DNA of 64,000 nt, from NCBI RefSeq assembly GCF_963921235.1, contig NC_086097.1, forward strand, positions 22,756,001 to 22,820,000. The letters run 5' to 3'. Both the position numbers and the translations under genes were made by a program. The notes below the pieces were generated by a model. The model saw only the letters and a list, made by a program, of their open reading frames with translations, ran no database searches and was not told where the DNA came from. Below, piece after piece: positions 34,515-35,482 of the stretch. Positions within the stretch are counted from its first letter, which is position 1. The number at the start of each line of letters is the position of its first letter. Source of the stretch: Mobula hypostoma (taxonomy: Eukaryota).

Positions 34515-35482
34515 CAAGTCTGGTTCATCCTTGGGAGCAATTTCCAAATGCCTGAAGGTACCACGTTCATCTGTACAAACAATAGTACGCAAATATAAAC
34601 ACCATGGGACCACGTAGCCGTCATACCGCTCAGGAAGGAAACGCATTCTTTCTCCTAGAGATAAACGTACTTTGGTGCGAATAGTGCAAATCAATCCCAG
34701 AACAACAGCAAGGGACCTTGTGAAGATGCTGGAGGAAACAGGTAGACAAGTATCTATATCCACAGTAAAACGAGTCCTATATCGACATAACCTTGAAAGG
34801 CTGCTCAGCAAGGAAGAAGCCACTGCTCCAAAACCACCATTAAAAAGGCAGACTACAGTTTGCAAGTGCACATGGGGATAAAGATCTTACTTTTTAGAGA
34901 AATGTCCTCTTGTCTGATGAAACAAAAATTGAACTGTTTGGCCATAATGACCATCGTTATGTTTGGAGGGAAAAGGGTGAGGCTTGCAAGCCAAAGAACA
35001 CCATCCCAACCGTGAAGCATGGGGGTGGCAGCATCATGTTGTGGGGGTGCTTTGCTGCAGGAGGGACTGGTGCACTTCACAAAATAGATGGCATCATGAG
35101 GAAGGAAAATTATGTGGATATATTGAAGCAACATCTCAAGACATCAGCTAGGAAGTTAAAGCTCGGTCGCAAATGGGTCTTCTAAATGGACAATGACCCC
35201 AAGCATACCTCCAAAGTTGTGGCAAAATTGCTTAAGGACAACAAAGTCAAGGTATTGGAGTGGCCATCACACAGCCCTGTCCTCAGTCCAATAGAAGATT
35301 TGTGGGCAGAACTGAAAAAGCGTGAGCGAGCAAGGAGGCCTACCAACCTGACTCAGTTACACCGGTTCTGTCTGGAGGAATGGAACAAAATTCCAGTAAC
35401 TTACTGTGAGAAGCTTGTGGAAGGCTATCCAAAATGTTTGACCCAAGTTAAACAATTTAAAGGCAATGCTACGGAATACTAA
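34515..35482 (+). pseudogene. SB-like DD34E transposase pseudogene lacking about the first 19 codons
   Basis: KSGSSLGAISKCLKVPRSSVQTIVRKYKHHGTT*...[18 protein letters not shown]...DNDPKHTSK...SPIED...KGNATEY; stops at 34615, 34895 and 35183, and a frameshift near 34793. Confidence 0.95.

Follow-up and report, generated by a model that had tools for sequence, protein, structure and literature searches.

How a transposase resembling that of Sleeping Beauty (SB) came to lie in the DNA of a cartilaginous fish is the question raised by this locus, a Tc1-type element in a 64,000-nucleotide stretch of the Mobula hypostoma assembly (NC_086097.1; the window). The initial annotation had read the likeness as a sign of horizontal transfer, provided that the host was not itself a teleost, and the host can be read from two young retroelements in the window. 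One is a gypsy-type LTR element on the minus strand (13888-18814) with 863-bp LTRs that are 98.6% identical and an intact 732-aa gag-like ORF bearing a SCAN and a zinc knuckle; only about 3.2 kb lies between its LTRs, so the element is probably internally deleted. The other is a CR1 reverse-transcriptase frame on the plus strand (56773-58203), open over 476 aa and 92% identical to a Mobula hypostoma protein. The gag ORF (15706-17901) is 93% identical to its counterpart in M. hypostoma, 84% to that in M. birostris and at most 64% to those in Hypanus and Hemitrygon. The CR1 ORF (56773-58200) falls from 92% in Mobula to 85% in Leucoraja and 76% in Hypanus and Chiloscyllium, and among the 120 matches listed no named non-chondrichthyan exceeds 63%. 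Thus, the host belongs to the devil and manta rays or to their nearest kin (Batoidea, Myliobatiformes), a chondrichthyan and not a teleost.

The element is larger than the transposase frame that first drew attention (34515-35482). That extent is correct for the frame and incomplete for the element, which starts at 34071, ends at 36056, lies between two TA dinucleotides and has an inverted right end in place of its left end. Its parts are as follows.

34069..34070, no strand: left TA target-site copy, read from the sequence
34071..34504, minus strand: 434-bp arm, an inverted copy of the right end that replaces the usual left end; it contains transposase codons 274-340, the stop and the full right IR, both DRs (inner and outer) included
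34502..34516, plus strand: 15 bp left of the normal 5' untranslated region of SB (positions 261-275 in L001, the 1639-bp reference element)
34515..35482, plus strand: Tc1/DD34E transposase pseudogene, codons about 20-340
35483..35637, plus strand: inner part of the right IR, with the inner DR near 35487-35513
35638..35977, minus strand: 3' end of a non-LTR retrotransposon, 340 bp, within the right IR
35984..36056, plus strand: outer part of the right IR, with the outer DR at about 36030-36056
36057..36058, no strand: right TA target-site copy, read from the sequence and followed by TATATA

The left arm (34071-34504) is 94% identical to 35277-35637 and 91% identical to 35978-36059, the latter matching L001 at 79 of 82 positions. 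The 15-bp remnant sits between two breakpoints with microhomologies of 3 bp and 2 bp, after which the sequence jumps to L001 position 445, with loss of the start codon and about 19 codons. No left-IR sequence beyond DR similarity is found within the window, and the half-DR motif of the L001 left IR, which is presumably the HDR, is absent from the window copy. The copy is a two-right-ended non-autonomous form in which the left IR is missing. Its transposase frame carries four stops (34615, 34841, 34895 and 35183) and a +1 frameshift, one extra base at about 34793; AATAAA hexamers occur in the inner right IR at 35528, 35540 and 35586. The LINE that had been noticed inside the IR is real: the 340-bp piece is flanked by a 6-bp target duplication (GGATTA at 35632-35637 and 35978-35983) and bears a short tail of 7-bp units. 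Its C-terminal motif, found as well at the end of a reverse-transcriptase-linked frame at 45401-45445, suggests that it is Rex/Babar-like.

Several neighbouring features deserve mention in their own right. A 104-bp imperfect palindrome bounded by TA (33967-34070; fold z-score -7.3) abuts the left end of the element and has a TA in common with it. No second copy of this palindrome is present in the window; it may be a small MITE, with the transposon inserted into its end. About 350 bp to the left of the element lies a fragment of a pogo/Tigger-type transposase on the plus strand (33455-33724; Pfam HTH_Tnp_Tc5, E 7e-10). The first base of the left arm (34071) is G instead of the usual C, a change that resembles the lesions at the very end of the IR described as "self-inflicted wounds" in the SB literature (PMC5224488), although a single base says nothing of cause.

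The closeness to SB was measured against natural elements recovered in a metagenome scan, in which 3 of 65 loci (L001, L002 and L005) have 93-94% DNA identity to the window. The reference, L001, is a metagenome contig that carries an undamaged element of 1639 bp. Its ORF of 340 aa is identical to a pT2-vector SB transposase at 336 positions; against eight named salmonid proteins it reaches 91-95% for six and 86-88% for the other two. From this protein identity and from the lack of ray repeats, L001 and L005, together with three coded organisms (A, G and H), are probably of teleost origin. The 90-residue peptide quoted in the initial annotation (34913-35182, plus strand) differs from the intact L001 ORF at two residues (K171E and V230A), so the difference from SB of about 2 in 90 given there stands for this stretch. 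It does not extend to the whole pseudogene, in which 285 of 321 alignable codons are identical (89%); the peptide is the best-preserved portion. The open frame around it (34898-35182) shares 88 of 95 residues with the SB100X catalytic domain in PDB 5CR4 (E 1e-57), four of the seven differences forming a single run (RKEN vs DAVQ), and the piece upstream aligns with three structures of SB DNA-binding subdomains (5UNK, 2M8E and 6URS). At the DNA level, all SB-homologous sequence is identical to L001 at 1128 of 1196 nt (94.3%) and to L005 at 1126 of 1197. The non-coding right end, which had also been said to follow SB closely, does so at 219 of 231 positions. Between the window copy and L001, dS is 0.080 (16.5 of 218 synonymous sites), dN is 0.054 and dN/dS is 0.67. 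Synonymous and non-coding sites are therefore nearly as similar to the SB type as coding sites, and the low nucleotide identity to salmonid elements that would have undone the transfer reading was not found.

By structure and by descent the element belongs with SB. The catalytic triad (D153, D244 and E279) is unchanged relative to L001 and 5CR4, as expected of a DD34E transposase, and HTH_SB (55 bits, cut-off 43), HTH_Tnp_Tc3_2 and DDE_3 (62 bits) all score above the Pfam cut-off. The TA duplication and the terminal inverted repeats (the 434-bp arms) are those of a Tc1 element; each arm has two DR cores, spaced as in L001 when the insertion is left out of account. A protein tree of 34 rows groups the ray copy with the pT2 SB protein and teleost elements in a clade of 26 rows (support 100/99), and at its node the ray copy is not separated from the salmonid-type set. 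An element tree that followed the species tree would have spoken for inheritance; the tree, built from proteins only, places the ray copy inside a clade whose named members are SB itself and teleost elements. The copy is not an autonomous SB element, having no left IR, four stops and a frameshift, nor is it a salmonid Tss1 element in the strict sense. The two arms have 18 letters in common that differ from L001, besides 13 and 15 private ones, and these 18 letters and 6 in the body are fixed in X19, the sequencing run from the window's species. The 33 body substitutions relative to L001, 7 of which are CpG-type transitions, comprise 16 private to the copy, the 6 fixed in the ray and 11 that may be of either kind, which puts the difference between the ray family and L001 at 24-35 of 1196 nt (2-3%). 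Judged from these letters, the ray family forms a subfamily in its own right, sister to the salmonid type and about 2-3% from it. The initial description as a transposase nearly identical to SB thus holds for the degree of identity but has to be amended in that the element is a rearranged, non-autonomous member of a sister subfamily with no full-length gene.

Whether the family belongs to the ray genome can be judged from sequencing reads. Of 24 coded runs listed, four (X19, X24, X22 and X1) were compared over 34455-37400; the other 20, with shares of 0.26-0.31, were left out of the evidence. X19 covers 30 of 30 bins of this interval, whereas the coverage by X24, X22 and X1, SB-rich runs of other organisms, is essentially confined to the transposon. 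The unique-flank contigs of X19 (443, 302 and 240 letters; depth 12-14) show 0 differences from the window, of which X19 may be the very sample used for assembly. At 8 listed sites X19 carries the window letter and the other three runs carry the SB-type letter; the ray therefore possesses a subfamily of its own. Most of the X19 depth over the four stops and the frameshift represents the intact form, so these lesions are private to the window copy. Joints that skip the 340-bp LINE piece occur in all four runs, and the piece itself has a summed depth of about 1.6 million in X19 and essentially none in X24, X22 and X1. The family belongs to the host genome. Summed X19 depth is 54,000-92,000 in body bins and 216,000-242,000 in the right arm; since summed contig depth is not copy number, it is taken only as indicating that the family has likely been amplified to thousands of copies in the ray lineage. 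As a separate observation, X19 depth over 35346-35642 in the right arm reaches about threefold the body value, above the expectation for two arms per copy, and no such step is seen in X24, X22 and X1. Shorter, mostly right-end derivatives may exist in the ray.

The argument for transfer rests on synonymous divergence. With a ray/bony-fish split at 473 My (supplement tree) and a synonymous rate of 3.1e-9 per site per year, both from PMC7070016, vertical descent predicts a dS of about 2.9, an expectation built on a published average rate and date; the observed value of 0.08 against about 3 points to horizontal transfer. Inheritance of the element from an ancestor that rays share with bony fishes, its likeness kept by purifying selection or by slow evolution in rays, could draw on the low mutation rates of chondrichthyans noted in PMC10587355 and on a dN/dS below 1. 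Slow evolution in rays would leave the bony-fish branch, from which alone about 1.5 changes per synonymous site would be expected, and selection fits poorly with a pseudogene whose synonymous and non-coding sites are nearly as alike as its coding sites. Such inheritance is highly improbable, as had been surmised from the identity, that of the non-coding DNA included. Equally improbable is contamination or mis-assembly, by which teleost DNA (from prey or the laboratory) or an SB vector would have been joined to a ray scaffold. It gains something from the possible identity of X19 with the assembly's own sample and from the fact that, among the X19 pieces listed, none spans a junction between element and flank, the nearest starting 17 bases past the end. 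The IR, however, contains a fragment of a ray-abundant LINE with its target duplication, the element's depth in X19 is thousands of times that of the single-copy flank, and the letters that prevail in X19 at fixed sites are not those of the SB type; the copy also bears four stops and a frameshift and is without the SB100X residues. Transfer between bony fishes and rays, long after their split, would very likely account for these sequence comparisons. The locus is a dead, TA-flanked SB-like copy of a family that very probably entered the devil-ray lineage from ray-finned fishes or through a vector shared with them.

The direction of transfer was probably from a teleost to the ray. The ray type shares A230, P312, A313 and E317 with elements of Sparus and Prochilodus, residues that the salmonid type lacks, and so it is not simply derived from a salmonid element. 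A ray-fixed doublet of two transversions (34745/34747) occurs three times in the available portion of the PMC9777934 supplement (SB-Hetnil once, SB-Panhyp twice), in which the salmonid-type motif occurs 33 times, the first 400 letters of each sequence being considered. Four motifs from the 3' end had no match in that supplement, whose sequences end at 400 letters, so that their absence carries no weight. Given the doublet, the donor need not have been a salmonid. These two entries are presumably from Heterotis niloticus and Pangasianodon hypophthalmus, going by their abbreviations. The doublet, a single motif, hints that the nearest kin of the ray family may lie in a non-salmonid teleost sub-lineage of SB. 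Five more letters common to the ray copy and SB-Panhyp were discounted as CpG-type transitions that recur independently, and the remora was dropped as a donor, SB-Echnau being by eye a more distant type. The ray-type WNKI motif was found, among the proteins compared, only in the window's own; a ray-type motif had 0 matches in viral contigs, another was found in 0 of 70 loci, and a search of genomic contigs returned only distant Tc1 relatives (5 loci, 53-71% identity). A real transfer in the opposite direction, or one into both lineages from an unsampled third host or parasite, would be compatible with the residues shared with Sparus and Prochilodus but not with the salmonid type, and with a tree node at which the ray copy is not separated from the salmonid-type set. 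It is nevertheless unlikely, in that ray-finned fishes account for the named diversity of the SB clade, also on its deeper branches, and two teleost entries bear the ray-type doublet.

How the two right ends arose bears on the later history of the family. A local accident, in which two opposed neighbours were fused by a deletion or a one-off inversion occurred, would explain why there are two breakpoints, which suggest more than one event; moreover, TA flanks every Tc1 end, so that TA at both ends does not prove a single insertion. This explanation is doubtful given the near-equal private change in the arms (13 vs 15 letters), the threefold right-arm depth in X19 that is missing from the other three runs, and the fact that the same architecture gives amplified mariner lineages (PMC4678618). 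That the two-right-ended form transposed as one unit is reasonably probable. On this reading, a coding-competent sister element of SB would have entered the germ line of the ray, probably no more than some tens of My ago, and spread by cut-and-paste amplification into TA sites. A rearrangement would then have put the 3' part in place of the 5' part. The product would be a non-autonomous form, its inverted arms 434 bp long, for whose movement intact copies likely acted in trans. The window copy would have inserted at a TA, each arm would have decayed by about 3.5%, and the LINE fragment would have been a later arrival. The K2P distance between the arms is 0.070 and, if the arms were identical at insertion, gives a rough insertion age of about 11 My at 3.1e-9, or 35-50 My at an assumed 0.7-1e-9 per site per year.

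Tc1 transfers among aquatic vertebrates are common, and it is a well-supported conclusion that the present case adds a new host class for the SB clade to a kind of event already well known. Searches of the literature outside subscription journals and Repbase/Dfam gave no account of SB-clade elements from rays or sharks. SB constructs with two right ends transpose poorly. A tentative proposal is that devil and manta rays have their own SB sister family, derived from a non-salmonid teleost sub-lineage, in which two-right-ended derivatives, devoid of the left IR and its enhancer, out-amplify the full-length parent. If true, it would count as the first case of a cartilaginous fish invaded by the SB clade, and nature would supply a counter-example to the view, formed in the laboratory, that the left IR is important if SB is to transpose efficiently. 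With the ray, the relatives of the transposon tool most used in vertebrates extend to a further vertebrate class, about 470 My removed, for which the dedicated 2022 survey lists none; thousands of natural copies would provide another, independent record of how SB evolves and of what becomes of two-right-ended elements. PMC12361510 gives a Tc1/mariner share of 2.3-3.3% for skates and rays vs 0.14% for sharks, and an SB-type invasion would be a concrete cause for part of that excess. The main text of a manta and devil ray genome preprint (bioRxiv 10.64898/2026.10.27.761883) contains no "Tc1".

Several known systems can be set beside the ray element. Tc1/mariner elements in ray-finned fishes dominate known vertebrate transfers (Zhang et al., 2020; PMC7070016), and, among five chondrichthyan genera looked for in the supplements, only Callorhinchus and Rhincodon are present. 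Zhang et al. call a TE transferred when its dS lies below that of 99.5% of the core orthologues for the species pair; the dS of the ray TE is 0.08. The SB survey lists 107 ray-finned species and one mollusc, with no chondrichthyan for SB or SB-like elements in the portion available (Jia et al., 2022; PMC9777934); its entries SB-Hetnil and SB-Panhyp share the 34745/34747 doublet with the ray copy, one motif being compared. Transfers of Tc1 elements between teleosts and lampreys are likewise described by Kuraku et al. (2012; PMC3516227), where near-identical elements also occur across a deep vertebrate split; the element there is DTSsa1-like, and PCR did not find it in cartilaginous fish. The architecture of the copy recalls Rpmar49 and Rpmar17 of Rhodnius (PMC4678618) and the rearranged Dromar MITEs (PMC4161770), which are amplified mariner lineages whose one end is an inverted copy of the other. 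These too are non-autonomous, with long terminal inverted repeats that include transposase remnants, but they are mariners with short simple TIRs, whereas the ray copy is an IR/DR element. In SB itself the left IR carries the HDR enhancer (PMC5224488). Compared with SB10/SB100X (5CR4, 5UNK and 2M8E) and the salmonid Tss1-type elements, the ray copy has the same DD34E transposase (89% in a decayed copy, 94% in nucleotides), the same IR/DR right end with two DRs and the same TA target. It differs in that it is a pseudogene of a distinct subfamily in a chondrichthyan host, in which a second right end stands where the left IR, the promoter region and the first codons would be.
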